From a virus, in the UHGV virus genome UHGV-1365323: a stretch of DNA of 46,478 bases, one strand, 5' to 3'. Every line of letters starts with the position of its first letter. Within the stretch, counting starts at the first letter, position 1. The notes beneath the pieces were generated by a model. That model searched no databases and was not told the DNA's origin. It saw only the letters and a list, made by a program, of their open reading frames with translations. The position numbers and the translations under genes are program-made. Of the stretch, positions 1,053 to 42,512 are shown piece by piece.

Positions 1053-1081
1053 ACTATACGATGGCGCTCAATCTACGTCAA
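1053..1081 (-). promoter_or_regulatory. Leftward sigma70-type promoter, TTGACGTAGATTG-N-TATAGT; a reverse-strand copy of the conserved promoter family.
   Basis: Reverse complement of 1053-1081 reads TTGACG tagattgagcgccatcg TATAGT, almost identical to the element at 26403-26431. Confidence 0.5.
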
Positions 1082-1106
1082 TATGATGGTGAAAATAAAT
1101 CAGATT

Positions 1107-1123
1107 GGGGTAAATTTTACCCC
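1107..1123. promoter_or_regulatory. Perfect 8-bp inverted repeat, GGGGTAAA-T-TTTACCCC, in the divergent control region; candidate operator.
   Basis: Read directly from the sequence; it lies between the leftward promoter and the rightward early region. Confidence 0.4.
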
Positions 1124-1140
1124 TGTGGGTAAGGTGTTGG

Positions 1141-1400
1141 GGCATAGGGCTTCCCCACGCACAAGCCTTGTCACTAAAGGGATTTAACATTTTTGGGGCA
1201 GTGGGGCAATTTTGACACCCATCCCCTTGTATATATAAAAATGCCGCAAGTTTGTTAATTTATTGTTAAAATAATACCTATAATATGAATAATAATATTA
1301 CCCATTACCCCAACTACTACTATTATTATTATATTACATATACTTAGAGTATAAAAGTTTGGGGCAACTAGGGTGCCCCAAGGCTGCCCCATATGCCCCA
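1141..1400. repeat. Iteron-like GGGGCA/TGCCCC repeats within an AT-rich tract; candidate origin or early regulatory region.
   Basis: GGGGCA occurs at about 1141, 1195, 1203 and 1361, and inverted TGCCCC at about 1374, 1386 and 1395. Includes the palindrome GGGGCAACTAGGGTGCCCC. A very AT-rich stretch at 1229-1350 carries TATTATTATTAT runs. Confidence 0.4.
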
Positions 1401-1455
1401 CAATGAATGTTTGTGATTGCATGATTCAATGTTTATGATATGATTCAACATAGAT

Positions 1456-1695
1456 TTGTTTGATGAGGGGGTTGATGTGTATCTTGATAAGTACGGAAAG
1501 AAGAATGCGGCGCTGTCTTCGCTTGCAGCTATCGCTGTTGGGGAGGTGGTAACTTATGATGCAAGAAAGTTTGGCGGCGTTGTGAGTTTAAGGAACGCCA
1601 TCAATTACTTCATGCGCAGGAATCCTGATTTAAAATTTTCCACTAAAGCCGGATATCCTGACAAAGAGACAATTTACGTGAAAAGGATTTCATGA
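1456..1695 (+). CDS. Hypothetical protein, 79 aa; TTG start in the track, so the true start is uncertain.
   Basis: ORF immediately upstream of the 518-aa gene and overlapping it (ATGA). Confidence 0.3.
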   Translation: MFDEGVDVYLDKYGKKNAALSSLAAIAVGEVVTYDARKFGGVVSLRNAINYFMRRNPDLKFSTKAGYPDKETIYVKRIS

Positions 1696-3248
1696 TGATT
1701 ACAGCACAGGAAATCTTCAACCAGGCAAGAGAAGCGCACACCTCTGCGGCGCGCGTAGCCATTCATCATGGCATGACACCAAGCCATAACATGTGGCCGG
1801 AAATTAAGGAAGGGCAGGAGAAGGATGTAACATACTCAGAGATAGAGCTTACCAGCGACAACAGGAAAGACCTGATAACGCGATATTCAGTTGCAGCAGC
1901 GAGGGCTGTTCAATTCCCCGTCAGCACATCATTCATGCACCTGCTTGGCTGCGTAGCCAGTGCCATGACGCGAAATTTTAGCGTTGAATACTACGGTTCT
2001 GAATTGCCTGTTTCCTTGTATGTGGTGACGTCGCAGCCGCCATCAGCTGGCAAGACAGCCATCAACTCAATGCACATGAACCCGATAAAAATTGAGTATG
2101 ACAACCTGTCAAAAAAGATGGAGAAGGAAATTGTAAAGATAAACATTCGCATTGAAGACCTGATGAAGGCCTACAAGGAAGCGACGAATCAGAACGCGAA
2201 GGCCATCATTGGAGATGACATTGCAAAAGAGAAGGAAAAACTGGAAAGTCTTTACACCATCACATACCCGTTAACTGATGCAACGCCAGAAGCGGTGCAG
2301 CACCAGGCAATTCATGAGGGTGGTTTTTTCAACCTGATAAGTGATGAGGCAAGCGTTTTAAATACCTGTCTTGGCCTTTCGTATGGCAAGGATGGAGGGA
2401 AATCTAACGCCGAGGTCATCCTGAAAGGCTGGGATGGAGGGTTTGTTGGCTCAGCTCGCGTTGGTCGTGGCGTTTCATCTGGCTATGTGCTTGGTAACAT
2501 CAGCGTCATTGCACAGGATGAAAGTATTGATGCCATTCTGTCGGCTGGCGACAGGGGTAACGGATTGTCAGAGCGATTCCTGATGCTTCGTGAGCAGTCA
2601 ATGCTGGGTTATCGTGAGCATTGGGATGTGGAAAATGATTGCCCGGTAAGTAAGCCAATGCCTAAAGAACTAAAGGCGGAATATGCCAGATTTGTGCATA
2701 ACCTTGTGGCTTCTGAGAAGGTTGTTTTCTCCCTCGCTAAAGAATCGCAGCGTATGATTGGACTTTTGCGAAACCAGTGGGAAAAGAATTTCCTGCCAGG
2801 TGGTAAATGGGATCACGTTTTGCTTCGTGGCGCCATGGGTAAGGCTGACAAACAAATAATCAGGCTTTCGGCAATATTCCATGCCGCTGAAAACTGGTGC
2901 GATGGTGGTCGTCGCTCAAAAATTATTGGTGAGGAGCATATAAGCCGCGCCATAAGCGTTTATGATGCACTAACAAAAACATTTACCGACGCCGTTGAGT
3001 CAAATGGATACGCTGGCGAGAAATCAGAAATTGACGTCGTTGCTGAAAAATTGCGCACAGCTGCGCAAAAAGGAAAGACAAATGTCACGGTGAAATGGCT
3101 TTATGATTCACTAAAAAACGTTAGGCCATTCAAGGGCATACCGCATATTTACGACAGACTCAAGTCAAACGTTTTGCCGTCTCTTGAAGAAGATGGATAT
3201 TGCGTATTCCTCAATAATACTGTTTACCTGAATCCGAGGTTAAAATAA
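1692..3248 (+). CDS. Putative replication-associated P-loop protein, 518 aa; possibly a DUF3987-like primase partner.
   Basis: P-loop-like QPPSAGKT motif; position at the head of the replication module; large size. Confidence 0.45.
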   Translation: MMITAQEIFNQAREAHTSAARVAIHHGMTPSHNMWPEIKEGQEKDVTYSEIELTSDNRKDLITRYSVAAARAVQFPVSTSFMHLLGCVASAMTRNFSVEYYGSELPVSLYVVTSQPPSAGKTAINSMHMNPIKIEYDNLSKKMEKEIVKINIRIEDLMKAYKEATNQNAKAIIGDDIAKEKEKLESLYTITYPLTDATPEAVQHQAIHEGGFFNLISDEASVLNTCLGLSYGKDGGKSNAEVILKGWDGGFVGSARVGRGVSSGYVLGNISVIAQDESIDAILSAGDRGNGLSERFLMLREQSMLGYREHWDVENDCPVSKPMPKELKAEYARFVHNLVASEKVVFSLAKESQRMIGLLRNQWEKNFLPGGKWDHVLLRGAMGKADKQIIRLSAIFHAAENWCDGGRRSKIIGEEHISRAISVYDALTKTFTDAVESNGYAGEKSEIDVVAEKLRTAAQKGKTNVTVKWLYDSLKNVRPFKGIPHIYDRLKSNVLPSLEEDGYCVFLNNTVYLNPRLK

Positions 3249-3529
3249 TGGCAACATTGCAACTTGCAGTAAAAGGTGAATATTTCGATGCGATGAAACG
3301 CGGAGAAAAAAAAGAAGAGTATCGTCTGGTAAATGCATACTGGGGTAATCGCATTTTTAACCGCTGGTACGATACGCTGATTATCACTCGCGGCTATCCA
3401 CGAAAAGATGACGATAGCCGCCGAATTGTAGTGCCGTATGACGGATTTGAAGTGAAGACCATTACCCATCCACACTTCGGTGCGGAGCCGGTAAAAGTGT
3501 TTGCGATAAGAGTAAATATTAACGGATAA
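3248..3529 (+). CDS. ASCH-domain protein (PUA-like fold), 93 aa.
   Basis: N-terminal LAVKGEYFDAMKRGEKKEEYR matches the ASCH signature (YF..I..G.K..E.R). Its ATG overlaps the stop of the upstream gene. Confidence 0.55.
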   Translation: MATLQLAVKGEYFDAMKRGEKKEEYRLVNAYWGNRIFNRWYDTLIITRGYPRKDDDSRRIVVPYDGFEVKTITHPHFGAEPVKVFAIRVNING

Positions 3530-3532
3530 CAA

Positions 3533-3562
3533 AAAACCCTCCATCAGGAGGGTTTATTTTTT
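3533..3562. terminator. Bidirectional intrinsic terminator (AAACCCTCC-ATCA-GGAGGGTTT plus a T-run).
   Basis: GC stem of 6-9 bp with T-runs on both strands; the primase stop codon lies inside the hairpin. Confidence 0.6.
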
Positions 3563-4470
3563 AGTGCTTCAAATAGCTCTTCTGGTCTATACAGCCTTTT
3601 TCTGATGGCGACGCTGTGTCGAATATCATGACCATCATCAGTAATCAGTATCGGCAGGCCAGCATTCTCGGCGGCGCATACCTCGTCGAAATTATTATTA
3701 ATGATGCAGCGAAGTTTAGCTCGCTGTTCATCGCTCACATTGCGCACAACTTCCCACATATTTTCCGGCGACCAGCAACACCAGACATGAGCACCGGTAA
3801 GCCGGTGTGCTCGCCAGGCATCGAGGTAATCCGCAACCAGGTATGTCCACTCTGTTTTTTCACCAATCGGTGTCACTGCGCCGCGCGTAAGTCTTCCACG
3901 AGTGTATTCATGGCTAAAACCCGCGCGAAATGACACGGTTTCATCGTCTGCCAGAAAAGCCACGTTGCACGGCGACATGGTTACAGCCATATAGAGTGGG
4001 ATTGCCACCAGTTCACCAGTTTTACCGGTTATGGTGTCGCCGCCTGCTTTTTCCATGATGGCCGCCACTTCTTCTGGAGCAAGGCAGTCCGATGCACCAT
4101 TGACTTTTGGCAACTGCTTTCTAATCGCCTCAAGTTTTTCGCGTGGGTGCATGTTCAGAAATCCTCCAAGCGCCTCCAGTGCTTCAGGAAAGCTCATGCC
4201 GGAGAGTTTCATCAGCCAGTTCATGCCGCTACCGGAACCGCACTGATTGCATATTGCACCGCCATCGCCTTTTGTTTCGAAGTTGTCATCAAAACGATAC
4301 CTGTCTTTGCCAAGGCATGAAGGGCACGGCTGGTGCTTACCATTGAAAACTCTGCTATCCACATTGACGATAGACATGATGGCTGCCTGCCAGTTATTTC
4401 TCATTAGAGGCTCTATTTCCTTCCAGTCATACTTCATAAAATCTTCCTGTTGACTATGATGTAGATTCAT
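3544..4470 (-). CDS. DNA primase with an N-terminal Zn-ribbon (CPSC...CNQC) and a TOPRIM-like C-terminal half, 308 aa.
   Basis: CxxC...CxxC zinc-binding module like primase-helicase Zn-ribbons; acidic TOPRIM-like motifs (ILITDDGHD). It converges on the neighbouring rightward genes. Confidence 0.6.
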   Translation of the reverse strand: MNLHHSQQEDFMKYDWKEIEPLMRNNWQAAIMSIVNVDSRVFNGKHQPCPSCLGKDRYRFDDNFETKGDGGAICNQCGSGSGMNWLMKLSGMSFPEALEALGGFLNMHPREKLEAIRKQLPKVNGASDCLAPEEVAAIMEKAGGDTITGKTGELVAIPLYMAVTMSPCNVAFLADDETVSFRAGFSHEYTRGRLTRGAVTPIGEKTEWTYLVADYLDAWRAHRLTGAHVWCCWSPENMWEVVRNVSDEQRAKLRCIINNNFDEVCAAENAGLPILITDDGHDIRHSVAIRKRLYRPEELFEALKNKPS

Positions 4471-4484
4471 TGTAATTTAGCAGC

Positions 4485-4529
4485 ATGAAACAATCAATCG
4501 TTACTTGCAATGAAACAATTAATCGTTAC
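4485..4529. repeat. Two 20-nt direct repeats, ATGAAACAAT(C/T)AATCGTTAC, 25 bp apart, between the divergent primase and HNH genes; candidate operator sites.
   Basis: Copies at 4485-4504 and 4510-4529 with one mismatch; upstream is TTGACT-N17 followed by a GATGTAGAT motif. Confidence 0.5.
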
Positions 4530-4581
4530 AATAGAGGTTAGGAAATGGCTATCACCGTAAAGAAGTGCGAGGTTTGCGGAA

Positions 4582-5283
4582 ATGAGTTCATCGGAACAGC
4601 AAAAGCAAAATGTTGCTCAGGAAAGTGCAGGGTGCGAAAGTTCAGGGATAAAAAAGGCATGTTCAAGATGCAGAAAGATGCTTCCAGCCACTAGTGAGTA
4701 TTTCTATACAGATAAAAAGATGCGGCTTGGTTTTAAGTCACACTGCAAGGCATGTGATGGCAACAAAGGGAAAAGACTTCGTTATCTTGGTGGCGGGCTT
4801 AAGATATGCTCTAAGTGCAAATCAGAGCTTGAAGCGAATGATGAAAATTTCAACAAGAACAAGTCATCACTTGATGGCTTGAGGCCTGAATGCAAAAGGT
4901 GTCAGGCTGAATATAAGAAAATTCATTATGATAAAAACAAAAGACAAATAAGCAAAAAATCAAAGGTTTATTATAAAGAAAACAAGGAGGTTCATAGCAA
5001 TAGATGCAAGAAATGGAGGGAGGAAAACAAGAAAATTATCAGGTTTCACCAGAAAAAATATAAGTATCTGAAGAGCCTGGCAGTGCCATGCTGGTTCGAA
5101 TCAGAAAGAATGTTGATAGAAACAGTTTATGAGAAAGCGTCCGCACTTGGCATGCACGTTGATCATATAGTACCGATTAACAGTAAAATTGTTTGCGGAT
5201 TGCATTGCTGGCATAACCTACAGCTTTTAGCCCCTAGTGAAAACAGATCTAAAAGCAACGTTTACTGGCCTGATATGCCATAG
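4582..5283 (+). CDS. HNH homing endonuclease with multiple CxxC zinc knuckles; the N-terminal extent is uncertain.
   Basis: C-terminal HVDHIVP...HNLQLL...N HNH motif and several CxxC pairs. The gene is AT-rich relative to its flanks. Confidence 0.65.
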   Translation: MSSSEQQKQNVAQESAGCESSGIKKACSRCRKMLPATSEYFYTDKKMRLGFKSHCKACDGNKGKRLRYLGGGLKICSKCKSELEANDENFNKNKSSLDGLRPECKRCQAEYKKIHYDKNKRQISKKSKVYYKENKEVHSNRCKKWREENKKIIRFHQKKYKYLKSLAVPCWFESERMLIETVYEKASALGMHVDHIVPINSKIVCGLHCWHNLQLLAPSENRSKSNVYWPDMP

Positions 5284-5291
5284 GTGATTAA

Positions 5292-7196
5292 ATGCATAGA
5301 ATAGACAAAATGATATCCGAACTACCAATTGATGAATTGCGCACCAAAATAAGCACGGGAGAAATTGAGCCTAGAAATTACCAGTGGCTTTGCTATGCCC
5401 TTGCTTCTAACGAGATTCGTCGTTATATGGGGCCGTTTTATATAACAGCATCTGTTGGTGCTGGCAAAACAATCATGATTGCCATGCTGGCACGGAGATT
5501 CTCTGACATGGGATATGAGGGTATGGTTATTGCCAGACAATCTGAGATTATTAGCCAGAATGCAGAGGAGTGCTGGAATTTTGGCGTTAAAAACTCCCTT
5601 TTCAGTGCCGGACTTGGCAGGAAGTCTACCGCCTATCCTTTGCTGATGGGTACGGAGGGGACGGTAGTAAACGCTCTTTTCGACACAGAAGAAAAAAAAC
5701 AGCCGCTAAGCGACTTCTGTCCGCGCTATTTGATTATCGACGAATGCCATCAGGTCGACTGGGCAGATGTTGTTGGCGATGGGGTAACACAGTACGGAAT
5801 TATAATAAATGCTTTCATGAAACGCTGCCGAGAAAAGCACGGACATGAACTAAGGATTATCGGATTAACTGGCTCACCTTTCCGTGGCGTTGAGTCGATT
5901 AAAGGTGCCTTCTGGAAGAAAGAGGTGATCAACATCGACACCAAATACATGGTGGACAGGGGGTTTCTTGTTCCTACAATTTTTGGTTTAAGTGATGCTG
6001 ATGGTCTTCACTATGACCTTTCTGAATTTCATTCATCTGAACAGGACGGCACTCAGGATTTCAGCTTTGAACAGCTGAATGCAATGCAGAAGGAAATTCT
6101 TGAGCAAGGAACCATGACGCAAAAAATAATGATGAAAGTCATGGAGCTTACCGCAAACAGAAATGGCGTTCTGATCACTTGCGCGGGCAAGAAGCATTGC
6201 AAAGAAGCAGCCAAATATTTACCAGAAGGCAGTTATGCCATCGTTACGGAAGATATGGGGCCAAAGGCCAGGCAGAAGGCATTGAAAGATGCTTACCAGG
6301 GAAGGATAAAATATGTCCTCCAGATTCAGGCGCTAACTACTGGCGTTAACATCCCTCTATGGGACACAAGCTGTATTTTGCGCAAAATAATGTCCCTCAC
6401 CCTTCTGGTTCAGTTGCTTGGGAGAGGAATGCGCTTGCTTAAACCAGAGCAAATTGCTGCTGGATATAAAAAAGAAGATCACCTTGTTCTGGACTTCTCT
6501 TCGACCATGTTCGAACTTGGTGGCCTGTATGAAGACCCCATCCTTGAGGAAGCAGAAGCACAGCGTGCCAAGAGAAGCGGAGAGCAGGTTCCATGCCCTA
6601 AATGCCAGACGATGAACAGCCCATATGCGCGCCGCTGCATTGGCAAGGATGCATTGTCGCCAGATGGTCGTTGCGAGGAGTTTTTCAGTTACATTCGTTG
6701 CGGCTTCGATAAGCATGGAATACGTATTTTTGATGATGGATGCGGAACTAAAAACGACCCAACGGCGCGCTATTGCCGACATTGCGATCATGTTTTGCGC
6801 GACCCTAATGCGGCACTGAATGAGCGTGCGTATACCGATAATGAGTGGGCTGATGTTATGGACTTCAAAGTCCAGTTAACGAAGGACGGAGAAGGTATTT
6901 TGTATCGCTACTGGATTAACCGTTGTGATGGCACAGAAGGATGGGCTAATGAGGTTTTCTATCCATACGGTGGCGCAACTCACATGAAAAACATGTTTAA
7001 GGCAAAGGCGGTCTTTCCTCACCTTGAGGATAAGTCGATGGCTGGGAGAATCCTGAAATGCCAGAACGCCAAACAATTCATGATGTATGCGGGATTGATT
7101 AAAGCGCCAAAACGCATCACTCATCGCATTAATGATAAAGGTCGCGACATCATCCACCGCAAAGAATTTAAAGGAGAACAGAATGAAGCAGCTTGA
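5292..7196 (+). CDS. SF2 DEAH-box helicase with C-terminal zinc fingers, 634 aa.
   Basis: Walker A (SVGAGKT), DEAH (LIIDECHQ), a helicase C-terminal QxxGRGxR-like motif (QLLGRGMR), and a CPKC...CRHC zinc-finger tail. Confidence 0.75.
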   Translation: MHRIDKMISELPIDELRTKISTGEIEPRNYQWLCYALASNEIRRYMGPFYITASVGAGKTIMIAMLARRFSDMGYEGMVIARQSEIISQNAEECWNFGVKNSLFSAGLGRKSTAYPLLMGTEGTVVNALFDTEEKKQPLSDFCPRYLIIDECHQVDWADVVGDGVTQYGIIINAFMKRCREKHGHELRIIGLTGSPFRGVESIKGAFWKKEVINIDTKYMVDRGFLVPTIFGLSDADGLHYDLSEFHSSEQDGTQDFSFEQLNAMQKEILEQGTMTQKIMMKVMELTANRNGVLITCAGKKHCKEAAKYLPEGSYAIVTEDMGPKARQKALKDAYQGRIKYVLQIQALTTGVNIPLWDTSCILRKIMSLTLLVQLLGRGMRLLKPEQIAAGYKKEDHLVLDFSSTMFELGGLYEDPILEEAEAQRAKRSGEQVPCPKCQTMNSPYARRCIGKDALSPDGRCEEFFSYIRCGFDKHGIRIFDDGCGTKNDPTARYCRHCDHVLRDPNAALNERAYTDNEWADVMDFKVQLTKDGEGILYRYWINRCDGTEGWANEVFYPYGGATHMKNMFKAKAVFPHLEDKSMAGRILKCQNAKQFMMYAGLIKAPKRITHRINDKGRDIIHRKEFKGEQNEAA

Positions 7197-7599
7197 AAGC
7201 GGGATATGGGTATTCGACAGTGGTTATCGTGGAGAATGCCCTAAAGAAGAGACTGACCAGATGGGTTACGGCACATGGATGCAGCACCGCTTCCCTGATG
7301 TTCTGTGGTTTCATGTGCCTAACGAGACTGGAACAAAGAGTGGTCCGCAATTCATCGAAAAACGCCGAAAAATGGGCGTCAGGAGCGGTGTAAGCGACAA
7401 CGTGATACTAACCAACGGCATTAATCATAAATGCGGCCTGATTGAACTGAAGAGGCGCGACAAGACAAAATCAAAAGTATCGCCATCGCAGATTGATGTT
7501 CTTGAGTGCGCCATTGCAGAGGGTCACTTTGGAGCCATTGCTTATGGTCTTGAGGAGATAAAAAGAGCGACGTTATTCTATTTTGGAGTTGACAAGTAA
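7183..7599 (+). CDS. VRR-NUC domain nuclease (PD-(D/E)XK fold).
   Basis: D...ELK core (SGVSDNVIL...GLIELKRR). Start moved to the ATG behind the AAGGAG Shine-Dalgarno at 7170. Confidence 0.6.
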   Translation: MKQLESGIWVFDSGYRGECPKEETDQMGYGTWMQHRFPDVLWFHVPNETGTKSGPQFIEKRRKMGVRSGVSDNVILTNGINHKCGLIELKRRDKTKSKVSPSQIDVLECAIAEGHFGAIAYGLEEIKRATLFYFGVDK

Positions 7600-7641
7600 T
7601 TCATACCACCTTACAATCCAATAATACCAAAGAGGCGTTGT

Positions 7642-8145
7642 ATGGATAAATATTATGTAGATGAATGGCTTATTGTTAATGCTGATGAAGGCTCTATTTT
7701 TTGGAGAAAGAGTAGAGGATTAGCGAAAGCAGGTGATTCTGCAATACATAAACATGAAATTACCTCAAGAGGAGGTGCGAAATATAAAGCTATCTCATTC
7801 GGAAGGAGAAAGTGGTTATTGCATAGATTCATATGGACGTATGTTAACGGTGAAATTCCTGATGGAATGATTGTTGATCACATTGATGGAAATACAAGCA
7901 ATAACTCAATAAAAAACTTAAGACTTGCAAGCAAGGCGGAGAGTTCCTTTAACAAAGGTATGTTTAAAAATAACACCTCTGGCGTAAAGGGTGTTTATTG
8001 GGACAAGAGAAACAAGAAGTGGATGGCATACGGAAGAATAAATGGAAAGATGAAAAATCTTGGCAGATACTCATCAATTGAGGATGCTAAAAATGCCGCA
8101 GAGGAATTTAGGCGAGTTAATTTTAAGGAATTTTATAGGCGGTGA
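7642..8145 (+). CDS. HNH homing endonuclease with a C-terminal AP2 DNA-binding domain.
   Basis: IDHIDGN...NLRL HNH core plus NTSGVKGVYWDKRNKKWMA AP2 signature. Confidence 0.8.
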   Translation: MDKYYVDEWLIVNADEGSIFWRKSRGLAKAGDSAIHKHEITSRGGAKYKAISFGRRKWLLHRFIWTYVNGEIPDGMIVDHIDGNTSNNSIKNLRLASKAESSFNKGMFKNNTSGVKGVYWDKRNKKWMAYGRINGKMKNLGRYSSIEDAKNAAEEFRRVNFKEFYRR

Positions 8146-8148
8146 ATC

Positions 8149-9087
8149 ATGAAGGTTTACTTTAACAATGAATTAAGAAATCAGGATTACCATTCAGAAA
8201 CCGAGCATATTAATGGCTCTGGTTTATGGAATATACTTGACAGATGCCCGGCAGCATGGCGCTACAAAGACGAAGAAGATGATCAGTCAAAAGCTCTTAT
8301 CTTCGGTACAGGTAGCCATACTGCGTTGCTTGAACCTGAACGTTTTGATGCTGAATATGCTCGCATGCCAACCAAAGAAGATTTTGGTGATGACCTGCTT
8401 GTTACTGTAAGTGATATGAACTCATGGGCAAAAGAACGAGGCATCAAAGGACTTTCAGGAAAGTCGAAAGCTGAGGTGATCAAAATCATCCAGGCGACTG
8501 GCGAGCCAGTGAAAATTTACGATGTCATCCGTGAAGAGGCTGAAAAAGCTGCTGTAGGAAAGCAAATGCTGGAAGGTGGTGATTATGACGCTATTCAGCA
8601 AATGCGTGCTGTAATCCACGCAAACAGCTATTACAGCAGTCTTCTCGCTGGTGCTTATGCTGAAGTGTCAATTCTAGGTGAACTTAACGGAGAGAAGGCA
8701 AAAGTTCGCTTTGACTGCCTTACCAAAGGTGGCGACATCATCGACTACAAAACAGCAGTGAGCGCCAAGCCTGATGAGTTTTTCCGCCATGCAGCGCGGC
8801 TAGGGTACTTTATGAAGATGGCGATGCAACACGACATGTTTGTCGAGGCTTATGGGCATGCACCTCGCTCGGTAAATCTTCTGGTGCAGGAGAAGAAATC
8901 TCCATTCATCCCTGCGTTGATTCGTCTGACTGATGAACAGTTACGCATTGGTCGCATTCAGCTGCGCAGCGCGATGGAAATCTATAAGGCATGCAAAAAA
9001 GCCAATTCATGGCCTGGCTACTCAATGGGTAATCCGGTCATCGAAATGGAAACGCCGGAATGGTTCAAAAAACAATTTAATTTATAA
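8149..9087 (+). CDS. PD-(D/E)XK exonuclease of the RecB/Cas4/YqaJ type; recombination exonuclease.
   Basis: D...E(V)SI...RFDCL...IIDYKT catalytic pattern; located next to the recombinase ATPase and SSB. Confidence 0.55.
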   Translation: MKVYFNNELRNQDYHSETEHINGSGLWNILDRCPAAWRYKDEEDDQSKALIFGTGSHTALLEPERFDAEYARMPTKEDFGDDLLVTVSDMNSWAKERGIKGLSGKSKAEVIKIIQATGEPVKIYDVIREEAEKAAVGKQMLEGGDYDAIQQMRAVIHANSYYSSLLAGAYAEVSILGELNGEKAKVRFDCLTKGGDIIDYKTAVSAKPDEFFRHAARLGYFMKMAMQHDMFVEAYGHAPRSVNLLVQEKKSPFIPALIRLTDEQLRIGRIQLRSAMEIYKACKKANSWPGYSMGNPVIEMETPEWFKKQFNL

Positions 9088-9095
9088 CTAGTGAG

Positions 9096-10142
9096 GTGAT
9101 GCAAATGGGTATTCTTAATATTAAACCAGCAGAGCGTTCAGGTTCTCGCATAGTGATTGGCATTTCAGGTCAGTCTGGTAGCGGCAAGACGCTTACGGCA
9201 CTAAAGATGGCGCGAGGTATGGTCGATAAACCAGAAGAAATTGGATTTCTTGACTCTGAAAATGGTCGTGGCAGGCTTTATTCTGGAGAGCTTGACGGTC
9301 CATTTATGCACGCTGATTTGTATGCGCCATTTAGTCCAGCTCGTTACCGCCAGGCTATCGAGGAATTTCAGGAGGCAGGCGTTAAGGTTCTGGTTATTGA
9401 TTCAGGATCGCACGAATGGGAAGGTGAAGGAGGATGCAATGATATTGCAGAGCAACCACTATTGCAGGGTAAGGCAATGGCAGACTGGAAGCGAGCCAAG
9501 TCTGAACATAAAAAATTCATGAGCGCTCTTTTGCAGAGCAATATGCATATCATCGTGTGTTTGCGAGCCAGAGAGAAAACGAGTTTTAAAAACCCCAAGA
9601 AACCTGAATCCCTCGGATTGCATGCTGTATGCGAAAAAGATTTTATGTTTGAAATGACAGTAAGCATGATGATGTATGATAATGGAAAAATTCAGGAATT
9701 TACCAAGCTACCAGAAGAGTTGCGTCCAATCTTCTTTGATTCAGGCCGTGATAGTGTACACGAAGGATACTTAGGCGAGGCTCATGGGAGAGGTTTAATT
9801 AAATGGGTGGATTCAGGTGTCAAGGTCGACGAAGAGTTTGAGCACTGGCGCTCTAAACTTCAAATGACGGCGTCGAAAGGCGTTGCTGCGTTAACTGCCG
9901 AGGCAGTTAACTTGCCTGATTCAGTGAAAGCAAAAATTCGTGCAATCTGGCCTACATTGAAGGCATCAGCAGAAGAGTATGAGCGCATTGAATCATTCAT
10001 CAATGATGAATCGCCAGCATCGGTAACTATCACACCGCAGGACGATTTTAATCCGGCAAAACTCCAGAAAGCAGATGCGCCAGCTTCATCTGCAAACGAA
10101 GAGAAGCCATCAACATCTCAACAGAACATCGAAAACTTTTAA
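9096..10142 (+). CDS. RecA-like/Sak4-like recombination ATPase, 348 aa.
   Basis: Walker A (GISGQSGSGKT) and Walker B-like (LVIDSGSHEW). It sits between the exonuclease and SSB. Confidence 0.55.
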   Translation: MMQMGILNIKPAERSGSRIVIGISGQSGSGKTLTALKMARGMVDKPEEIGFLDSENGRGRLYSGELDGPFMHADLYAPFSPARYRQAIEEFQEAGVKVLVIDSGSHEWEGEGGCNDIAEQPLLQGKAMADWKRAKSEHKKFMSALLQSNMHIIVCLRAREKTSFKNPKKPESLGLHAVCEKDFMFEMTVSMMMYDNGKIQEFTKLPEELRPIFFDSGRDSVHEGYLGEAHGRGLIKWVDSGVKVDEEFEHWRSKLQMTASKGVAALTAEAVNLPDSVKAKIRAIWPTLKASAEEYERIESFINDESPASVTITPQDDFNPAKLQKADAPASSANEEKPSTSQQNIENF

Positions 10143-10151
10143 GGGTAAATT

Positions 10152-28693: not shown

Positions 28694-28716
28694 AAAGCCC
28701 CTCGCGGGGCTTTTCT
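28694..28716. terminator. Bidirectional intrinsic terminator (AAAGCCCC-TCG-CGGGGCTTTT).
   Basis: 8-bp GC stem plus T-run. Confidence 0.6.
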
Positions 28717-33931: not shown

Positions 33932-34064
33932 GGGCGGCCTCCATAGCAGCCAGGTCAATGCGCTGCTCGATAGATTTAATGATTGACTCTGGCACATTAA
34001 GCATTTGCAGAGTCTCCCGGCAATCGCGCTTATGAACCTCTGTCACCTCCTGCCACTTCTTCAT
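33849..34064 (-). CDS. Hypothetical protein, 71 aa.
   Basis: ORF; first gene after the HNH gene. Confidence 0.35.
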   Translation of the reverse strand: MKKWQEVTEVHKRDCRETLQMLNVPESIIKSIEQRIDLAAMEAAHEAEEAQMLSWMDRTLPGVLHRGKTTD

Positions 34065-34582
34065 TCCACACCACCTTTTATCATTCTTTTTGGCCTATTG
34101 ATTCCATGGTTTTCATGGAAACCATATTTCATTTCAGCTTCAAGTCTGGCCTTTATTGCTTCGCTCTTTTCTGAAAAGCGACCTAAGTGCAGCCTTGTTC
34201 CGTTTAAGACTATTTGCGCGTACCACTTGCCGCGCTTTTTATCAAAACAAACACCAACAACACCACTGGTGTTGTCGCTCCTGATTGAACTGTTTCTCGT
34301 GTTTTCTCTCCTGTTAACAAGCCTGAGATTCTCTATTCGGTTGTCATCTCTGATGTGGTTGATGTGATCAATTTCCATGTCTTCCGGTATTGGTCCGTTA
34401 AATAGCTCCCAAACAATCCTGTGCTCATATGTCTGGGTGTATTTTACTTTTACCTTTCGATAACCTGTCGTTGGCTCCAGGCACCCAATCCTTGCGCCAG
34501 CCTTTACGTTGTTTGACGGCTTAACCTTCCAGTAAAGCTTGCCGTTTTCGTAAACAAACAAGTCAATAAAGTTCATATCCAC
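34061..34582 (-). CDS. HNH homing endonuclease with an AP2 domain.
   Basis: IDHINHIRDDNRIENLRL plus NTSGVVGVCFDKKRGKWYA. Confidence 0.8.
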   Translation of the reverse strand: MDMNFIDLFVYENGKLYWKVKPSNNVKAGARIGCLEPTTGYRKVKVKYTQTYEHRIVWELFNGPIPEDMEIDHINHIRDDNRIENLRLVNRRENTRNSSIRSDNTSGVVGVCFDKKRGKWYAQIVLNGTRLHLGRFSEKSEAIKARLEAEMKYGFHENHGINRPKRMIKGGVE

Positions 34583-34630
34583 ATCACTCGCATTAAGATG
34601 TTATAATCTACAACACCTAGTATTGACTAA

Positions 34631-34659
34631 TTGACGTAGATTCGTCAAGATGATTTTCA
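34631..34659 (+). promoter_or_regulatory. Promoter-family copy (TTGACGTAGATT); a second TTGACT lies 8 nt upstream.
   Basis: Exact 12-mer; the -10 hexamer is weak. Confidence 0.45.
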
Positions 34660-34672: not shown

Positions 34673-34873
34673 ATGGCGAGACAACGCAAAGAACCACTGG
34701 AAGTACTGACTGAGATTATCGCTAAGCGCCAGCCGTTAAGCCTGCGAGATGTCAGATATTACGCGCACTGCTATGTAGCAATGCGTGAATGGAGCGCTGA
34801 AAAAATGTATTCGTTTGTGCGCGAACACTTCAGCGTGGATGAAAAAAACAAGGTTACATTGAGAGGTGAGTGA
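34673..34873 (+). CDS. Hypothetical protein, 66 aa.
   Basis: GGAGAG Shine-Dalgarno; first gene of the cassette. Confidence 0.45.
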   Translation: MARQRKEPLEVLTEIIAKRQPLSLRDVRYYAHCYVAMREWSAEKMYSFVREHFSVDEKNKVTLRGE

Positions 34874-35424
34874 TGAAATACAAATACCTGAAGGGAAGCG
34901 CTGATTATTTTAACGGCCATGAAGATGCAGTCCTGGTTGTGAGGTCGGCAACCAGTGGAAAAATCTACTGGCTCAGCGCGGATTATGCAGGACGAGATAA
35001 GGATATCGAAAAGGCTGGTGATATTGTTGTCGCTCATCGTGAGCCAATCACCGACGAGGATGATTTGAATGGATGCGACAGTTCACCAGGATGCCGCGTG
35101 AAAGCTGGTGAATTGATAATGGACGGCAAGTGGCATGATGCCAACATTGGCGGCAGTGATGAAACAGAAGCCCTCATCACCGAGCGAGGCAATCGCTATG
35201 GCAAATTCAAAGACGGCGCAGAAATCATGCAGTCACTGAAAGACACCATGCGCGACGTTGACGGCTGGAACAACCTGATGGCGAGCCAGAAGGAAGCGCT
35301 CGACATGATTCAGCATAAAATAGGTCGAATCCTGAATGGCGACCCGACATATGACGACAGCTGGAAAGACATTGCTGGCTATGCAACATTAATTGTTAAT
35401 GAACTGAATGGGGAGGTGAAGTGA
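34870..35424 (+). CDS. Hypothetical protein, 184 aa; the C-terminal all-alpha region is conserved-looking but unassigned.
   Basis: Coupled start. Confidence 0.45.
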   Translation: MMKYKYLKGSADYFNGHEDAVLVVRSATSGKIYWLSADYAGRDKDIEKAGDIVVAHREPITDEDDLNGCDSSPGCRVKAGELIMDGKWHDANIGGSDETEALITERGNRYGKFKDGAEIMQSLKDTMRDVDGWNNLMASQKEALDMIQHKIGRILNGDPTYDDSWKDIAGYATLIVNELNGEVK

Positions 35425-35618
35425 TGGCGGATTTCGGAAGCACTAAAAGAGATGCAACATGGACGGAGTGGCAGGAGCAGCTCGTTTCAATGCTGGAAAT
35501 TAACGGTTATAACCCTGATTTCTGCGATATTGCGGAGAATAGCGTTGCGCATTCAGCATATGAGCGCGGCGTGGCGGTTAGTGACTTCTTTTATGATAAT
35601 TATGAGGCCGATGAGTGA
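35421..35618 (+). CDS. Small acidic protein.
   Basis: Coupled start. Confidence 0.4.
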   Translation: MMADFGSTKRDATWTEWQEQLVSMLEINGYNPDFCDIAENSVAHSAYERGVAVSDFFYDNYEADE

Positions 35619-35980
35619 TGAAAAGACTCCTGAAAAACATCGCATGGGATATCTTCCTGACGTGGCCGCTGATTTACTTCGGCCTGTTTATGCAAAATGT
35701 GTATGCATACAATATGGCAATGGCTTTTTTCTGGTTCATGTCGATTGCGTCAATCATTGCATCGGTTGGCTTGCTGTCAAGCAAAGACCTGCTTGATAAA
35801 TCCGTTGCTCGCTACAAAAAGCCGCTATGGATTCATCATAAATACCAGGTTGTGACGACATTTTGCGAAATAGCAGTGATGTTCGCGCTTGGTTATTTCT
35901 GGCTTGGTGGATTTTATCTGACCGCGACTCTGTTTCGCGCTGCCGCCAATGATAAAGTGACAGAGGAGGCTGGTAAATAA
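35615..35980 (+). CDS. Integral membrane protein with about four transmembrane helices.
   Basis: Four hydrophobic segments. Confidence 0.5.
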   Translation: MMKRLLKNIAWDIFLTWPLIYFGLFMQNVYAYNMAMAFFWFMSIASIIASVGLLSSKDLLDKSVARYKKPLWIHHKYQVVTTFCEIAVMFALGYFWLGGFYLTATLFRAAANDKVTEEAGK

Positions 35981-36142: not shown

Positions 36143-36168
36143 AAAGCCCCTTTATGGGGCTTTTTTAT
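36143..36168. terminator. Bidirectional intrinsic terminator (AAAGCCCC-TTTAT-GGGGCTTTTTT).
   Basis: 8-bp stem plus T-run. Confidence 0.65.
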
Positions 36169-36198: not shown

Positions 36199-36708
36199 TC
36201 AATCCTGCTTCTCTTGTCTCACGCCGTTGCAAGCAAAATCTCCGTGAAGCTTCATCCTGGCTCGTTCTATAGCCATAGATGCCGATTCAATTGATGTGTG
36301 CCTGCCAAGCCATACGGTTTTTTGATTTATCTTTATTTGAGCACACCATTTATTATTCCTTTTATCCCAACTAACGCCCTTGATTCCTGATGTGTTTGTT
36401 GCTGGCTTGATGGTGTTCATTCCATTTTGAGATCTACTCGCAAGCCTTAGATTGCAAATCCTGTTGTCATCCCTAACTCCATTAATGTGATCCACCTCAA
36501 CATGTGGCATGTCGCCATATACATATAGCCAAGCCAACCTGTGAAGGTAAAACTTTCTGCGCTCAATTTCTATTTGTAGATATCCATTGCGCTTGCGGCT
36601 ACCTGCTATTTTCCCATCAATCTTTCTACCAGGCTTATTCCAGTAAAATAAACCACTTGACGGTGAGTAATGCAGTATCTTTTTTATGTATTCTTGATTA
36701 AGCATCAT
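36199..36708 (-). CDS. HNH homing endonuclease with an AP2 domain.
   Basis: VDHINGVRDDNRICNLRL plus NTSGIKGVSWDKRNNKWCA. Confidence 0.8.
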   Translation of the reverse strand: MMLNQEYIKKILHYSPSSGLFYWNKPGRKIDGKIAGSRKRNGYLQIEIERRKFYLHRLAWLYVYGDMPHVEVDHINGVRDDNRICNLRLASRSQNGMNTIKPATNTSGIKGVSWDKRNNKWCAQIKINQKTVWLGRHTSIESASMAIERARMKLHGDFACNGVRQEKQD

Positions 36709-37933: not shown

Positions 37934-37972
37934 TTTTACCTCCGGTGATGCAGATTATTTTATCACAATAGT

Positions 37973-38001
37973 CTTGACGTAGATTGAATCGTAAGCGATG
38001 A
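37973..38001 (+). promoter_or_regulatory. Promoter-family copy (TTGACGTAGATTG...GATGAT); a GATGTAGATAC motif lies downstream.
   Basis: Exact 13-mer. Confidence 0.5.
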
Positions 38002-38031
38002 TGTAGATACACAAACACAGGAGAGTAAAAA

Positions 38032-38322
38032 ATGAAAAAATTAATCGCAGCAGCAGTATTCGCAATGGCTTCATTTGGTGCGTCGGCTGGCGAGTTTTGC
38101 AATGCAGTTGGTGAGCTCGGTGAAGCGGCAGCAGAAGCCCGTGATGCTGGCGTATCAAAGCAGCTCGCGCTGATTGTTTCTTTTGGAGGCCAGTATGGCG
38201 CTGAATTTAACCAACTCAGCAAGGCCATCGTTGATGGGGCATACAAAATGACAGACAAGACACCGAAAGAAGTGGCCGCTGTCGCCCGTGAAGTCTGCCT
38301 GTCAACGGTGGGCGACAAATAA
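38032..38322 (+). CDS. Small secreted or periplasmic protein, 96 aa, with a signal peptide; moron.
   Basis: MKKLIAAAVFAMASFGASA|GEF signal peptide; AGGAGAG Shine-Dalgarno; own promoter. Confidence 0.5.
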   Translation: MKKLIAAAVFAMASFGASAGEFCNAVGELGEAAAEARDAGVSKQLALIVSFGGQYGAEFNQLSKAIVDGAYKMTDKTPKEVAAVAREVCLSTVGDK

Positions 38323-38514
38323 TGTGCCCGCTACTGATGTTTAAGGCCCGTAATCGCTACGTAAGGCTGGTGATGCGCGGCATGGATGAGCATGCAGCAT
38401 GGCTGAGCGTGATGGGTGAACTTAGAGAGGTTTATTTAAATGAACAAAATAGAATGGCTTGAGTCTATGCGCACCCTTCACAACAAGAAAAGTAATATTT
38501 GACAGAGGCCGCCA

Positions 38515-39462
38515 TCAGGCGGCTTTCTTGTGTGTATCCTGCCACGCCTCACGCTGCTTATCGAGCTTTTCCTGCGTCCTCTCAAGTATCACCGGCTTGC
38601 CATCCATCACTAATGCAGGTATCTGAGCGCAGTGACAATTCCTGCGGTTTGCGCCTTCGCTGTAGAACTCATCAATCTCTTCGGGGGTGTAATACTTCCC
38701 GTGACGCGCGGCATGAGTGGCACGAGTGGTTTTCATCAGTGCCGACTGCCAGAGCATGATGGTTTCAATGCCAAGCGTCTCGCGTGCCTCAATCACTTCC
38801 TTGCGATTTGACTCACGCAGTACGCCAGTTATCTCGGTCTGCGCGATAGAACGTGCGTAACTATGAGATACGTCGGCGCGCTTGACGATATCGTCTTCAA
38901 TGTCACGAGGGTTGGCGCCGCGGGCAATGCCCTCCATTACAACCGATGCAACCTGCTGCCTGGTGTAGTCACTCAGCCCAGACCAGTCTGAGTACCCCTG
39001 AGTGTACGCCAGTTGCAGACGGTTAAGGTATGGCTCGCTATACAGGATGGCTGCCATAGGTCGCTGTTCAGCGTAGAGACTTGACAGGCTTGACAGTTCT
39101 GAGTTTGCTTTTTGAGTTCCGGCGGCCCATGCGTCGCCAATATGAATATTGGCCCACATCTGCCCATGGTCGAATGTATCGCCCTCAAGCAAAAACTGGT
39201 CAAGCAGGCGTTGCAGTTCATCCATGAACGACGCAGCACGCGAGGCGCTGAAATCATAATAATAATTACCACTTGATTCAGCATTCCTTTCGCTTACTGG
39301 AATGCTGCGGAACAGCTCAAGAAGAGCCGCGCGAATGCGTTTGTATCTGGAGGCGATATCCTTATCCATCTTATTAAGCCGTGGCGCTGATCCTAACGGG
39401 TCAGTCAGGCTTTGCGATACCCTTGGCTGTGGCAGGCGGGCGTTAAGTCTGAGGATTTTCAT
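38515..39462 (-). CDS. Head morphogenesis protein (SPP1 gp7 / Mu F-like).
   Basis: Position after the portal gene; size 315 aa. Confidence 0.55.
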   Translation of the reverse strand: MKILRLNARLPQPRVSQSLTDPLGSAPRLNKMDKDIASRYKRIRAALLELFRSIPVSERNAESSGNYYYDFSASRAASFMDELQRLLDQFLLEGDTFDHGQMWANIHIGDAWAAGTQKANSELSSLSSLYAEQRPMAAILYSEPYLNRLQLAYTQGYSDWSGLSDYTRQQVASVVMEGIARGANPRDIEDDIVKRADVSHSYARSIAQTEITGVLRESNRKEVIEARETLGIETIMLWQSALMKTTRATHAARHGKYYTPEEIDEFYSEGANRRNCHCAQIPALVMDGKPVILERTQEKLDKQREAWQDTHKKAA

Positions 39463-40487: not shown

Positions 40488-41877
40488 TCATGCCGCCTGG
40501 TAATTTTATTGGATCAAGGCCAAGGAATGAGCGAATTTCATCTGCCGTCAGGATTGGGTCCAAACCTGCATTCGCAGCGCTCTGCGCAGCTTGCGCCAGC
40601 TTGACAATCAATTCTGCCTTGTCGTTCTGCGTAGGCTCCAGCAAGTCATTCCACTTGCAGTAATATCCGGCCTCTGGCGCTTTGTCGATGATGCCGAATT
40701 TAATTAAACGCTCGACGAACACAGAAATAAGATAATCGAGCCACCCGTCACGACGCTGCATTGCCATCATGGCAAGTGACTGCTCATCATTTGCGGACGC
40801 AAGTACGCCGCTGCGACTACCGAGCAATGAGTTAAGAGGAATATTTACGGATGAAGCAAATTGGCTGGCCGCTACGTACATGAACGGTTCAGGGTCGTTC
40901 ATGGTTACTGACAGCACATCCACATCATTGCCAAACCCAAACATCGCAGCGTCAATCCCGCTATTTATTCTTTCTATATCTTCATTAAGGATATCTGGCA
41001 GCTCCTCTACCGTAACGGCCATTTGCTGCGCAAGGGATTGCACAGATACATTATCTTTGTTGAAGGATATAGATAATTGACGTGATGAGTTTTTGAGGAG
41101 CCCTTCCGCTGAACTTCCGGTAATTTTGGCGCAGTCTATTAAAGCGTTAAATCCAGCTCGAAGCAGAGGAATGCCAGAGAATATGCTCCCATCGAAACTA
41201 CCCTCTGCGAGAGTAATAATGCGGTCAGGGTGGATTTTAACCGATCGCTTTGGCTTACCATCGTTATCAAAATCATCAACGGCGCTTTCCTGGTACTCGA
41301 ACATCAAAGGCTGTCCGTAGTCCTCCTTTGACTCGTCATTTTGCCACTGAGAAACGCGCAACTGCTCCTCCCAGCATGGGATTAGCCTAACGATTGCCGC
41401 ATCTTTAATTCTGCCTGTTTTGGTCACATTAACAGGATCACTCCATTGGCCGCCATCATTTATCTGAAGCAGCAAGCCTGAGTAGCGGTTGATCAGGTTG
41501 CGCTTATCAGCATCTTTGATAAATGGAGCTGACTTCTTGAGGATTTTGTTTACCGAAACTTCCCATTTGGATGTTGCCTCGTCATCAGCATTGTGCTCAA
41601 GAACGGTGGGCATACCTTGCCACGACTTATTGAGCACAAGGTTAACCGCCGCTGTAGCTAACGGATATCGCTCGTAGGCAAAGCGGAAATCTGCTGCTGT
41701 AATCTCCTGGCTGTAACCACACTCCGACCAAAGCCTGTCGTGCTTTTGGTCAAGGTTCTTCCCGCCAAACTCCCGGCGCTGCCGCTCGATGAGCCTGTTA
41801 TTGTTCGCCACTCGCTGCTGAATATAGGCGTTTACCGCCTCTAACTTTGACATTTCGTCACCATAAAAAAATCCCAT
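40459..41877 (-). CDS. Portal protein, 472 aa.
   Basis: Size and position between the terminase large subunit and the MuF-like gene. Confidence 0.65.
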
Positions 41878-41903
41878 CGCATGGATGGGATTATAGCATG
41901 GTA

Positions 41904-42038
41904 TCAGTCGTCATCCTCGTCCCAATCATCATCTTCGTCATCATCACAGGATGCGAGAAGAGGATTCGTGCACTGACCTACATGGCGGGCGTATCCACTG
42001 CGACCGAGGTTGTGTAGCACGCCGTAGATTTCGAACAT
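41904..42038 (-). CDS. Overlapping small ORF, or the downstream frame of a frameshifted gene, ending in a poly-acidic tail (...[14 protein letters not shown]).
   Basis: I translated it by hand. The 78-aa ORF at 41978-42214 degenerates into a nonsense-like sequence exactly where this frame becomes protein-like. Confidence 0.3.
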
Positions 42039-42214
42039 TTCGGTTCGCTCATCACCAATATCAAGATCACAGGCCAGCGTTGCAGGACTTCGATAAGCTG
42101 CGCGGCCTGGTGTTTGTCGATGACTATTGCGTCGCCATCTTGATTGATGTTCATTGACTGCGGATTAAGCTCCGTAGTTGATATATCATCAAAAATTTCA
42201 CCTTCAATAATCAT
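41978..42214 (-). CDS. Hypothetical acidic protein, 78 aa as annotated; the C-terminus is probably completed by a frame switch into the 41904-42038 frame.
   Basis: ORF; ATGA overlap with the upstream gene. Confidence 0.4.
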   Translation of the reverse strand: MIIEGEIFDDISTTELNPQSMNINQDGDAIVIDKHQAAQLIEVLQRWPVILILVMSEPKCSKSTACYTTSVAVDTPAM

Positions 42215-42450
42215 AAATCACCACCCTCATCGTTATTTAGCTCAACATTCCGAAAGAAATCATTAATCGTCTTCAGGCCACTATAACCACGGCGTCGCTG
42301 CAACTCACACAGCACTTCATCATACATGCGCAGAAGTATAGCCTCATCTACATCGTACCTTTCGCACAGCGCTTCATCAGACACGCCAGCCCTTGCGAGT
42401 GAGTATATTTTTTCCTTCTGCTCCCACGAAAAAGATGAGTATGCCTTCAT
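42211..42450 (-). CDS. Hypothetical protein, 79 aa.
   Basis: ORF. Confidence 0.4.
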   Translation of the reverse strand: MKAYSSFSWEQKEKIYSLARAGVSDEALCERYDVDEAILLRMYDEVLCELQRRRGYSGLKTINDFFRNVELNNDEGGDL

Positions 42451-42483
42451 GATGCCCCGGTGATGTAGTTATGTCAATGCGCC

Positions 42484-42512
42484 TTGACGTAGATTCTAGC
42501 ATGGCGTAGATT
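42484..42512 (+). promoter_or_regulatory. Promoter-family copy, TTGACGTAGATT-N11-TAGATT.
   Basis: Exact 12-mer; TAGATT at the -10 position with a 17-nt spacer. Confidence 0.5.

Follow-up and report, generated by a model that had tools for sequence, protein, structure and literature searches.

The DNA stretch analysed here, UHGV-1365323, is a virus genome of 46,478 nucleotides (nt), referred to below as the window, and our attention was focused on a short sequence, the word, that recurs at its putative promoters. In megablast comparisons the window proves to be nearly all of the genome of a Roufvirus-like Klebsiella siphophage, about 93% identical to phage YX3973 and 80-90% identical to Aeromonas phage pIS4-A, Salmonella phage Vi II-E1 (Macdonaldcampvirus), members of Skatevirus and Swiduovirus, and the E. 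coli BASEL phages Bas77-81. Mapping of the YX3973 proteins onto the window gave its layout: the minus strand carries all structural, packaging and lysis genes, while the plus strand holds a replication block (1456-10655) and short interleaved units (22440-23315, 24250-24309, 26472-28547, 34673-35980, 38032-38322 and 42539-42829). At the left end, an operon of small genes runs on the minus strand from 1021 down to 226. The window was compared with nine relatives of the clade, L001-L006 and L008-L010 (YX3973 being L001, pIS4-A L004 and VLCpiS13c L009), which include Roufvirus, Macdonaldcampvirus, Skatevirus and Swiduovirus members as well as Citrobacter phage K1M; the clade hosts are Klebsiella, Salmonella and E. 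coli, and Klebsiella phage Kp4862-1 (L007) served as the outgroup.

Copies of the word and their position relative to promoter elements

The sequence TTGACGTAGATT occurs exactly at 1070-1081 on the minus strand and at 26403-26414, 34631-34642, 37974-37985 and 42484-42495 on the plus strand, with a variant, CTGACGTAGATT, at 22398; these coordinates agree within one base with those of the initial annotation, in which 37973 should read 37974. Five exact copies of this 12-mer compare with approximately 0.006 by simple expectation, and with up to two mismatches allowed there are 15 matches, against 3.2 expected (maximum of 9 in 100 shuffles). The most over-represented 11-mer of the window is TGACGTAGATT, with six copies, and 10 of 26 copies of GTAGAT are located in intergenic sequence, which makes up only about 9.5% of the window. 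Moreover, the rescan with a weight matrix that the initial annotation had proposed was run with a matrix trained on five diverged relatives only, which makes the test independent of the window. It returned 13 sites of at least 13.9 bits, all of them intergenic and distributed over nine promoter regions (Table 1), and 17 matches at 10 bits, against 5.0 expected (maximum of 12). The minus-strand copies at 34605 and 45353, both found by the matrix, and a degenerate copy at 42460-42471 were absent from the earlier list. A palindrome, TTTAATTAAA, was also considered; its three copies lie in coding sequence and it was dismissed as a chance occurrence.

The word consists of a -35-like half (TTGAYG) abutting, head to tail, a -10-like half (TAGATT), and its copies take up different positions relative to the predicted promoter elements. 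In one arrangement the word is the -35 and a separate -10 lies 17 base pairs (bp) downstream, namely TATAGT at 1081(-) and 26403 and a weak GATGAT at 37974, often with a second copy at the start site (26433 and 37998; inverted in L003, L005, L006 and L008). In another, TTGAC[AG] is found 17-18 bp upstream of the word, whose TAGATT then falls at -10 (22380/22398 and 24197/24214), and where two copies stand 17 bp apart the first falls at -35 and the second at -10 (42484/42501 and the left-end promoter of L006). In a third, neither half is in register, as the 4456 copy lies within a spacer and the 34631 copy follows neither pattern. A sigma70 geometry (a TTGACA-like hexamer, 16-18 bp, TAnnnT) is found at 1081, 4450, 22380, 24197, 26403 and 42484, weakly at 37974, and not at 34631. 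Copies are spaced by 10, 17, 24 or 30/31 bp or form inverted pairs. Similarity among the window copies at 1081, 26403 and 37974 extends over about 45 bp, upstream sequence included, while the other copies are alike over 12-13 bp only.

Much of the promoter description in the initial annotation was borne out, including TTGACG-N17-TATAGT at 1081(-) and 26403, TTGACA-N17-TAGATT at 24197, TTGACG-N17-TAGATT at 42484, the downstream half-motifs, which are second copies of the word (26433, 37998, 42501 and 4456), and the sigma70-like geometry of copies placed before genes of the same direction, at a distance measured here as 20-60 nt. These predicted promoters are kept at orthologous positions, upstream of and co-directional with their genes. 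The proposal that the element is a -35 hexamer with part of its spacer fails, as the identical 11-mer is also found at -10 and at +1 and the 34631 copy has no -35: its TTGACG cannot be a -35 because it is only 31 nt from the ATG and has no TAnnnT at 16-18 bp downstream. That copy may act as a -10 that lacks a -35, or else as an operator located approximately at +17 to +29 relative to the extended -10 promoter TGTTATAAT (34599-34607). It also lies inside a palindrome, which reads TTGACTAA-N8/9-TTAGTCAA in relatives (L001 35534-35560, L002 about 7640-7669) and TTGACG-N6-CGTCAA in the window (34622-34648), where the outer stem has been lost and an inner one gained. At the position of the degenerate 34605 copy, relatives carry the full TTGACGTAGATT, 23-28 nt from the start codon. 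The predicted start region of the primase promoter TGCTAAATT, which points leftward (4474-4482, minus strand), is overlapped by the 4456 copy. The leader that connects the 4456 promoter with the 4545/4582 genes contains two units of a 20-bp direct repeat, ATGAAACAATYAATCGTTAC (4485-4504 and 4510-4529, plus strand); it is kept in L002 and L008, and may be a second operator or an iteron.

Table 1. Copies of the word in the window, predicted extended -10 promoters and associated features.
Feature	Position	Strand	Score (bits)	Context
Word TTGACGTAGATTG, as -35	1069-1081	-	20.2	-10 TATAGT at 1053-1058(-); leftward small genes (836-1021 DUF7540, others)
Word ATGATGTAGATT, in spacer of TTGACT(4450)-N17-TAATTT(4473)	4456-4467	+	18.3	upstream of 4545/4582 genes and helicase
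Word CTGACGTAGATT, TAGATT as -10 of TTGACA(22380)-N18	22398-22409	+	17.9	
Word GTGGTGTAGATT, TAGATT as -10 of TTGACA(24197)-N17	24214-24225	+	16.1	upstream of tRNA-like gene
Word TTGACGTAGATTG, as -35	26403-26415	+	19.0	-10 TATAGT at 26426-26431; ParB-like unit promoter
Second copy ATGACGTAGAAA, at about +1 of 26403 promoter	26433-26444	+	17.8	followed by invariant CA-rich leader
Degenerate copy GTGTTGTAGATT	34605-34616	-	14.6	leftward, facing HNH, Lar, MarR small-gene block
Word TTGACGTAGATT, not a -35	34631-34642	+		31 nt before ATG at 34673
Word TTGACGTAGATTG, as -35	37974-37986	+	19.5	weak -10 GATGAT at 37997-38002; upstream of 96-amino-acid signal-peptide protein
Second copy ATGATGTAGATA	37998-38009	+	16.8	over -10 and start site of 37974 promoter
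Word TTGACGTAGATT, as -35 of TTGACG-N17-TAGATT	42484-42495	+	17.4	
Word ATGGCGTAGATT, as -10	42501-42512	+	14.2	17 bp after first copy; upstream of HAD-like 96-amino-acid gene
Word-like ATGGTGTAGAAT	45353-45364	-	13.9	structural strand; directly upstream of extended -10 promoter TGATACAAT
Extended -10 TGGTATAAT	22371-22379	-		tail operon
Extended -10 TGATATAAT	24186-24194	-		major tail gene
Extended -10 TGATAAAAT	26387-26395	-		connector genes; back to back with 26403 promoter
Extended -10 TGTTATAAT	31929-31937	-		head genes
Extended -10 TGTTATAAT	34599-34607	+		upstream of 34631 copy
Extended -10 TGATAAAAT	37957-37965	-		lysis genes
Extended -10 TGCTATAAT	41890-41898	-		portal gene
Extended -10 TGCTAGAAT	42493-42501	-		42450 genes; overlaps 42484 copy
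Extended -10 TGATACAAT	45343-45351	-		packaging genes: TerS-like, HNH, TerL
Bidirectional hairpin terminator of HNH unit	23373-23392			equivalents at the other three hairpin sites
ParB/Spo0J/KorB-family helix-turn-helix protein, candidate reader of the word	26850-27701	+		genuine family member
Clade-specific 79-amino-acid helical protein, possible helix-turn-helix, candidate reader	42211-42450	-		AlphaFold2 four-helix model, predicted local distance difference test (pLDDT) 81

Conservation of the word and its occurrence outside the clade

The word is not confined to the window but is a feature of the whole clade, its core TG(A/G)(C/T)GTAGA(T/A)T being present in the window and in all nine relatives examined (10/10 genomes), with approximately 9-16 copies per genome, one mismatch allowed, in the seven genomes counted. 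TAGATT hexamers are preceded by TGRYG in 28-45% of cases in clade genomes, against about 0.4% by chance, and the T and G located 5 and 4 bases upstream of TAGATT are invariant in the matrix. The outgroup Kp4862-1, which shares the structural module with the window at 35-53% protein identity, lacks the word altogether, and its colinear structural region is free of antisense cassettes. At the promoter of the ParB unit, alignment of six genomes revealed invariant ATTTTAkCATA, TGTTGACGTrGATTG, TATAG and TGACGTAGAAACAACAATAAATG, with an unconstrained spacer of 10 nt between the word and the -10. As word and hexamers are invariant while this spacer varies, the bases beyond the -35 hexamer are under purifying selection, so that the extended conservation noticed at the outset is both real and selected.

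Throughout the clade, the distance from the end of the proximal copy to a start codon with a Shine-Dalgarno sequence is mostly about 20-50 nt (commonly 22-35), and a CA-rich leader follows the copy. Orthologues of the left-end promoter carry TATAGT in the window, pIS4-A and VLCpiS13c, and a second copy of the word (TAGATT), at the same 17-bp spacing, in L006; this interchange indicates that TAGATT is likely to serve as a genuine -10. The two-copy arrangement is also found upstream of small early genes in L001, L002, L003, L005 and L008, the labels early and late being assumed here for the gene classes.

No earlier description of the word was found in the literature on the sequence, on these genera and on their promoters, and among the consensus sites known for CRP, FNR, MetJ, Cra, DnaA, IHF, DeoR and other regulators, we know of none that the word matches convincingly. 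A scan of IMG/VR with TTGACGTAGATTGA retrieved mostly clade members plus single chance matches, and one non-clade site with paired copies. The latter is a back-to-back pair, AAATCTACATCA-N9-TGACGTAGATTG, in the thrW-proA island of the E. coli EC12 chromosome (L131 6871-6891; also in L015, L017 and L073), adjoining the 3' side of a serine recombinase gene. Matches to the thrW-linked island were found in 634 of the 5426 complete E. coli genomes (about 12%), full-length in 183; no shared or homologous proteins were found between island and phage.

Genes behind the word and predicted promoters of the structural strand

The units downstream of the copies match their earlier description. The 22398 unit comprises an open reading frame of 44 amino acids (aa), an HNH_3 gene (22561-23046) and a DUF7740 gene (23043-23315), and the 26403 unit encodes the ParB/KorB helix-turn-helix (HTH) protein plus a weakly DnaN-like or RusA-like gene; the other rightward units are a membrane cassette (34673-35980), the 96-aa signal-peptide protein (38032-38322) and the HAD-like 96-aa protein (42539-42829). 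Behind the 24214 copy lies a tRNA-like sequence (24250-24309, plus strand) that scores 36.3 bits with the Rfam tRNA model, over model positions 8-63 only, and that is not recognized as a tRNA by ARAGORN; at the equivalent locus, the tRNA-Met and tRNA-Arg genes of pIS4-A are intact. By these comparisons the window sequence is a putative truncated or pseudo-tRNA, still placed behind a TTGACA-N17-TAGATT promoter. Hairpin terminators, announced for most units, close four of the six rightward ones (23373-23392, 28694-28713, 36143-36163 and 38505-38526).

A regulon restricted to morons, as first envisaged, is not what the copies delimit: downstream of the 4456 copy lie the 4545/4582 genes and the helicase, and copies in relatives are found before the 645-aa helicase (L003, L006), before the exonuclease (exonuclease VIII) block (L002, L004, L005, L008) and before other core non-structural genes. 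Judging by these positions, the controlled set would be the general non-structural class, replication and recombination genes included, with the morons among them. In the clade member seszw, 53 of 81 genes are removable, and a 36-kb mutant lacks many cassette genes and the MarR-like analogue (PMC9825161), which is consistent with an accessory status of the cassettes.

On the other strand, near-consensus extended -10 promoters (TGnTAnAAT) lacking -35 hexamers are predicted before almost every structural, lysis and packaging operon and before the primase gene, and several of them are conserved in relatives. ATTTTATCA, which is conserved before the copies at 26403 and 37974, does not belong to the rightward promoters; it is the reverse complement of TGATAAAAT, a predicted extended -10 promoter that faces the divergent leftward genes. 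Our survey shows two predicted promoter classes, one -35-dependent and carrying the word, the other -35-independent, of the extended -10 type and often back to back with the word. Since most extended -10 promoters (31929, 41890 and others) have no word nearby, the word is not a general activator site for late genes. Directly after the extended -10 TGCTATAAT of the portal gene comes a hairpin with a 9-bp stem and a T-run ending at the portal ATG (41870-41898, minus strand), a structure that looks like a terminator or attenuator overlapping the promoter.

Additional features of the window were also observed. Six paralogous HNH endonuclease genes are found in 46 kb (7642-8145, 17264-17878 and 22561-23046 on the plus strand; 34061-34582, 36199-36708 and 44267-44836 on the minus strand), several of them inserted into conserved operons or between two of them. 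The region 1100-1455, immediately before the replication genes, has an AT-rich core between GGGGCA repeats (1139, 1195, 1203 and 1361) and inverted TGCCCC (1374, 1385 and 1394), and in that respect looks like a replication origin or iteron region; similar GTGGGGCAA repeats are annotated in the record of phage E1. The homologue of YX3973 gp19 (92 aa, 96% identical) at 542-820 on the minus strand has an in-frame stop after codon 62 and is probably a pseudogene or truncated. Finally, a 72-aa zinc-ribbon-like protein (46238-46456, minus strand) is 97% identical to the product of a gene of the otherwise distant Kp4862-1 (L007 11678-11893), which looks like recent horizontal transfer between phages with a common host.

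A possible second reader of the word

Taking these observations together, we propose, with a confidence that is evenly balanced, that the word is embedded in promoters and is also recognized by a phage-encoded regulator that represses or autoregulates the promoter class. The word would be a clade-wide cis-regulatory element built into the sigma70-type promoter cores of non-structural units: in the window the rightward accessory cassettes, the replication-side promoter at 4456 and the leftward operon at 1081, and in relatives also the helicase and exonuclease operons. Host RNA polymerase would use whichever half is in register, as -35 at 1081, 26403, 37974 and 42484 and as -10 at 22398, 24214 and 42501; in the copies at 26433, 37998 and 34631, which coincide with the start site or follow it, it would use neither half. 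We infer a second reader because the unused half is as conserved as the used half while the neighbouring spacer drifts, and because polymerase contacts, being position-specific, cannot account for the same 11-mer being kept at -35, -10 and +1. The same word thus lies over -35, -10 or +1 at many promoters and is conserved independently of the polymerase register, as expected of an operator. This reader would most likely be a phage-encoded, sequence-specific DNA-binding protein sitting on core promoter elements. As the hexamers are near consensus, so that an activator is unneeded, and as the copies lie on core elements, coordinated repression or autoregulation is the most economical reading; the regulator would down-regulate or autoregulate the whole class together as infection proceeds (early shut-off), and the opposite-strand structural and lysis genes would run from their -35-independent promoters. 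The shared operator or regulator suggested in the initial annotation is accordingly a fair inference from the selected conservation past the hexamers. A close parallel is the C1 repressor of phage P1, whose short asymmetric operators lie over many promoters, overlap core elements singly or in variable pairs and control a gene class. The word is likewise short, asymmetric, scattered and placed on core elements over one gene class; however, P1 is temperate and its repressor is known, whereas the clade phage appears virulent and its word is built of -35-like and -10-like halves.

Candidate readers are encoded by the phage, namely the ParB/KorB-like HTH protein, a MarR-like winged HTH protein and the clade-specific 79-aa helical protein. 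The ParB-like gene lies behind the best-conserved of the word promoters. KorB of plasmid RK2 is a ParB-family global repressor whose operator, OB, is a 13-bp palindrome; in both systems the sites are present in the promoter of the very unit that encodes the ParB/KorB-family HTH protein, and about a dozen sites lie at promoters across the replicon. In contrast to OB, the window word is asymmetric: the 13-16-bp palindrome of ParB parS or KorB OB sites was not found, only occasional inverted pairs with 9-27 bp between. The 79-aa protein is annotated as 'sigma-70 region 4' in K1M, and Foldseek matches of its model to LuxR, sigma4 and HTH proteins all have E>1, so that its likeness to sigma4 or HTH proteins is suggestive only. 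The product of the DUF7540 gene (836-1021) had been suspected of being Cro-like from its sequence pattern; this found no support, as its model is beta-alpha-alpha-beta-beta (pLDDT 91) with no significant match in the PDB. Homologues of the ParB-like and 79-aa proteins are retained in all 70 deposited viable genome-reduced seszw mutants (PMC9825161); this is weak evidence, since that study avoided targeting some genes.

Several points weigh against a dedicated regulator. The asymmetry of the word and the varied spacing of its copies are atypical for a dimeric HTH repressor, and no binder was identified; fold searches of two small candidates (the 79-aa protein and DUF7540) gave only E>0.1. The recognition helix of the ParB-like protein is nearly identical in the word-less outgroup Kp4862-1, upstream of whose ParB homologue no alternative repeat was found, and the MarR-like analogue is dispensable in seszw, being absent from the viable 36-kb mutant. 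Our literature search found no transcription-start, expression or binding data for any clade member. In addition, the word pair in the unrelated E. coli island leaves room for a host factor or for a reason intrinsic to RNA polymerase.

The last point, together with the lack of a binder among the candidates, is in agreement with plain sigma70 early promoters without any dedicated regulator, their conservation resulting from selection for strong promoters, or from shared ancestry or recombination of promoter modules, as in T4 early promoters. Hexamers and spacing near consensus fit this account as well, and the approximately 45 bp common to 1081, 26403 and 37974 suggests paralogous promoter modules. 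Nevertheless, we regard it as rather unlikely, given that it leaves the 11-mer at three different promoter positions without explanation, that the out-of-register half is invariant while true spacer bases vary, and that site-specific flanks kept across genera exclude concerted evolution as the cause. That the copies are traces of a mobile element or targets of a homing endonuclease was rejected as highly improbable, even though two of the six HNH genes (22561 and 34061) adjoin a copy. Shared sequence is limited to 12-13 bp, or about 45 bp in three copies, and is not part of the longer repeated mobile sequence that the initial annotation had named as a refutation; there are no longer repeat units, terminal inverted repeats or target duplications around the copies. 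Moreover, some copies have no HNH gene at their locus, copies keep their positions in genomes lacking the HNH gene concerned, and the promoter geometry is constant.

It is possible, although doubtful as the main function, that the word works as a short recombination linker, paired with terminator hairpins, for swapping cassettes between phages, which would be compatible with a promoter role. At 22398 and 24214, the homology to YX3973 and pIS4-A breaks off precisely where the word ends on its 3' side, and different genes follow; the first gene behind the ParB-unit promoter also varies between genera (unknown in the window, anti-restriction in L003, L008 and L010, DUF5420 in L006), four units end at conserved hairpins, and the outgroup lacks both cassettes and word. 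A precedent exists in the PeSLs of T4-type phages, in which small variable accessory units have an early-promoter motif on the 5' side and a stem-loop on the 3' side (PMC2839356, PMC4122927). The window resembles them in having the word at the 5' edge of every unit, hairpins closing four of the six rightward ones and, at 22398 and 24214, homology breakpoints at the motif, and differs in sequence and phage family, in units lying antisense between structural operons, and in a motif that is also found at -10 and +1. With its 11-13 bp, however, the word offers a short target for homologous recombination; copies also stand before conserved core genes (the ParB unit, the helicase), and second copies at +1 are left unexplained. 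Improbable, in our assessment, is a word that forms a complete -35-independent promoter of extended -10 type, read with a phage sigma-like or sigma-appropriating factor as a middle class. The fairly tight distance of the proximal copy from start codons, the copies without an in-register -35 (34631 and leftward partners in L003, L005 and L008) and the invariant T and G before TAGATT would fit; on the other hand, most copies have TTGAC[AG] at 17-18 bp, some end in TAGAAA without the -7 T, and no sigma, MotA or AsiA-like domain (Pfam/PHROG) was found among the approximately 30 small proteins scanned, a set that does not cover every open reading frame. Phage T4 has middle promoters with a MotA box at -30 that work with AsiA, alongside AsiA-resistant extended -10 promoters. 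In its predicted promoters the window shares with this lytic phage two classes, one dependent on the -35 region and carrying a phage-specific word, the other of -35-independent extended -10 type, but it yielded no MotA or AsiA homologue in that scan, and its word keeps a good -35 hexamer instead of replacing it.

In an unlikely but more specific form of the repression that we favour, the 11-bp word would be the recognition element of a phage factor, either a KorB-like silencer or one that targets sigma region 4, which shuts down all -35-dependent promoters at once and leaves the structural extended -10 promoters unaffected, the word serving also as a cassette-exchange junction. The phi29 p4 switch, with divergent early A2b/A2c and late A3 promoters, is comparable in that back-to-back promoters lie in short divergent intergenic regions, where a single protein, once bound, could favour one promoter of the pair while repressing its partner. 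It differs in that the word is missing from most extended -10 promoters of the window, making general late-gene activation unlikely.

A large number of phages from this clade are being isolated with a view to therapy against Klebsiella, Salmonella and E. coli, and their genome reduction is also under way (PMC9825161); in the searchable literature, we found nothing on the transcriptional programme of Roufvirus, Skatevirus, Macdonaldcampvirus and their relatives. As the word marks essentially all non-structural promoters, and the extended -10 the structural ones, a map of predicted transcription units is readily obtained, with value in engineering as a handle for payload expression and for choosing safe deletion boundaries. 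It also provides a testable hypothesis on how a small virulent siphophage may time its genes with the host polymerase only. A regulator found to bind the word would count as a new global regulator of phages, and the silencer form, if true, would represent a simple two-class temporal switch across a clade of virulent enterobacterial siphophages.

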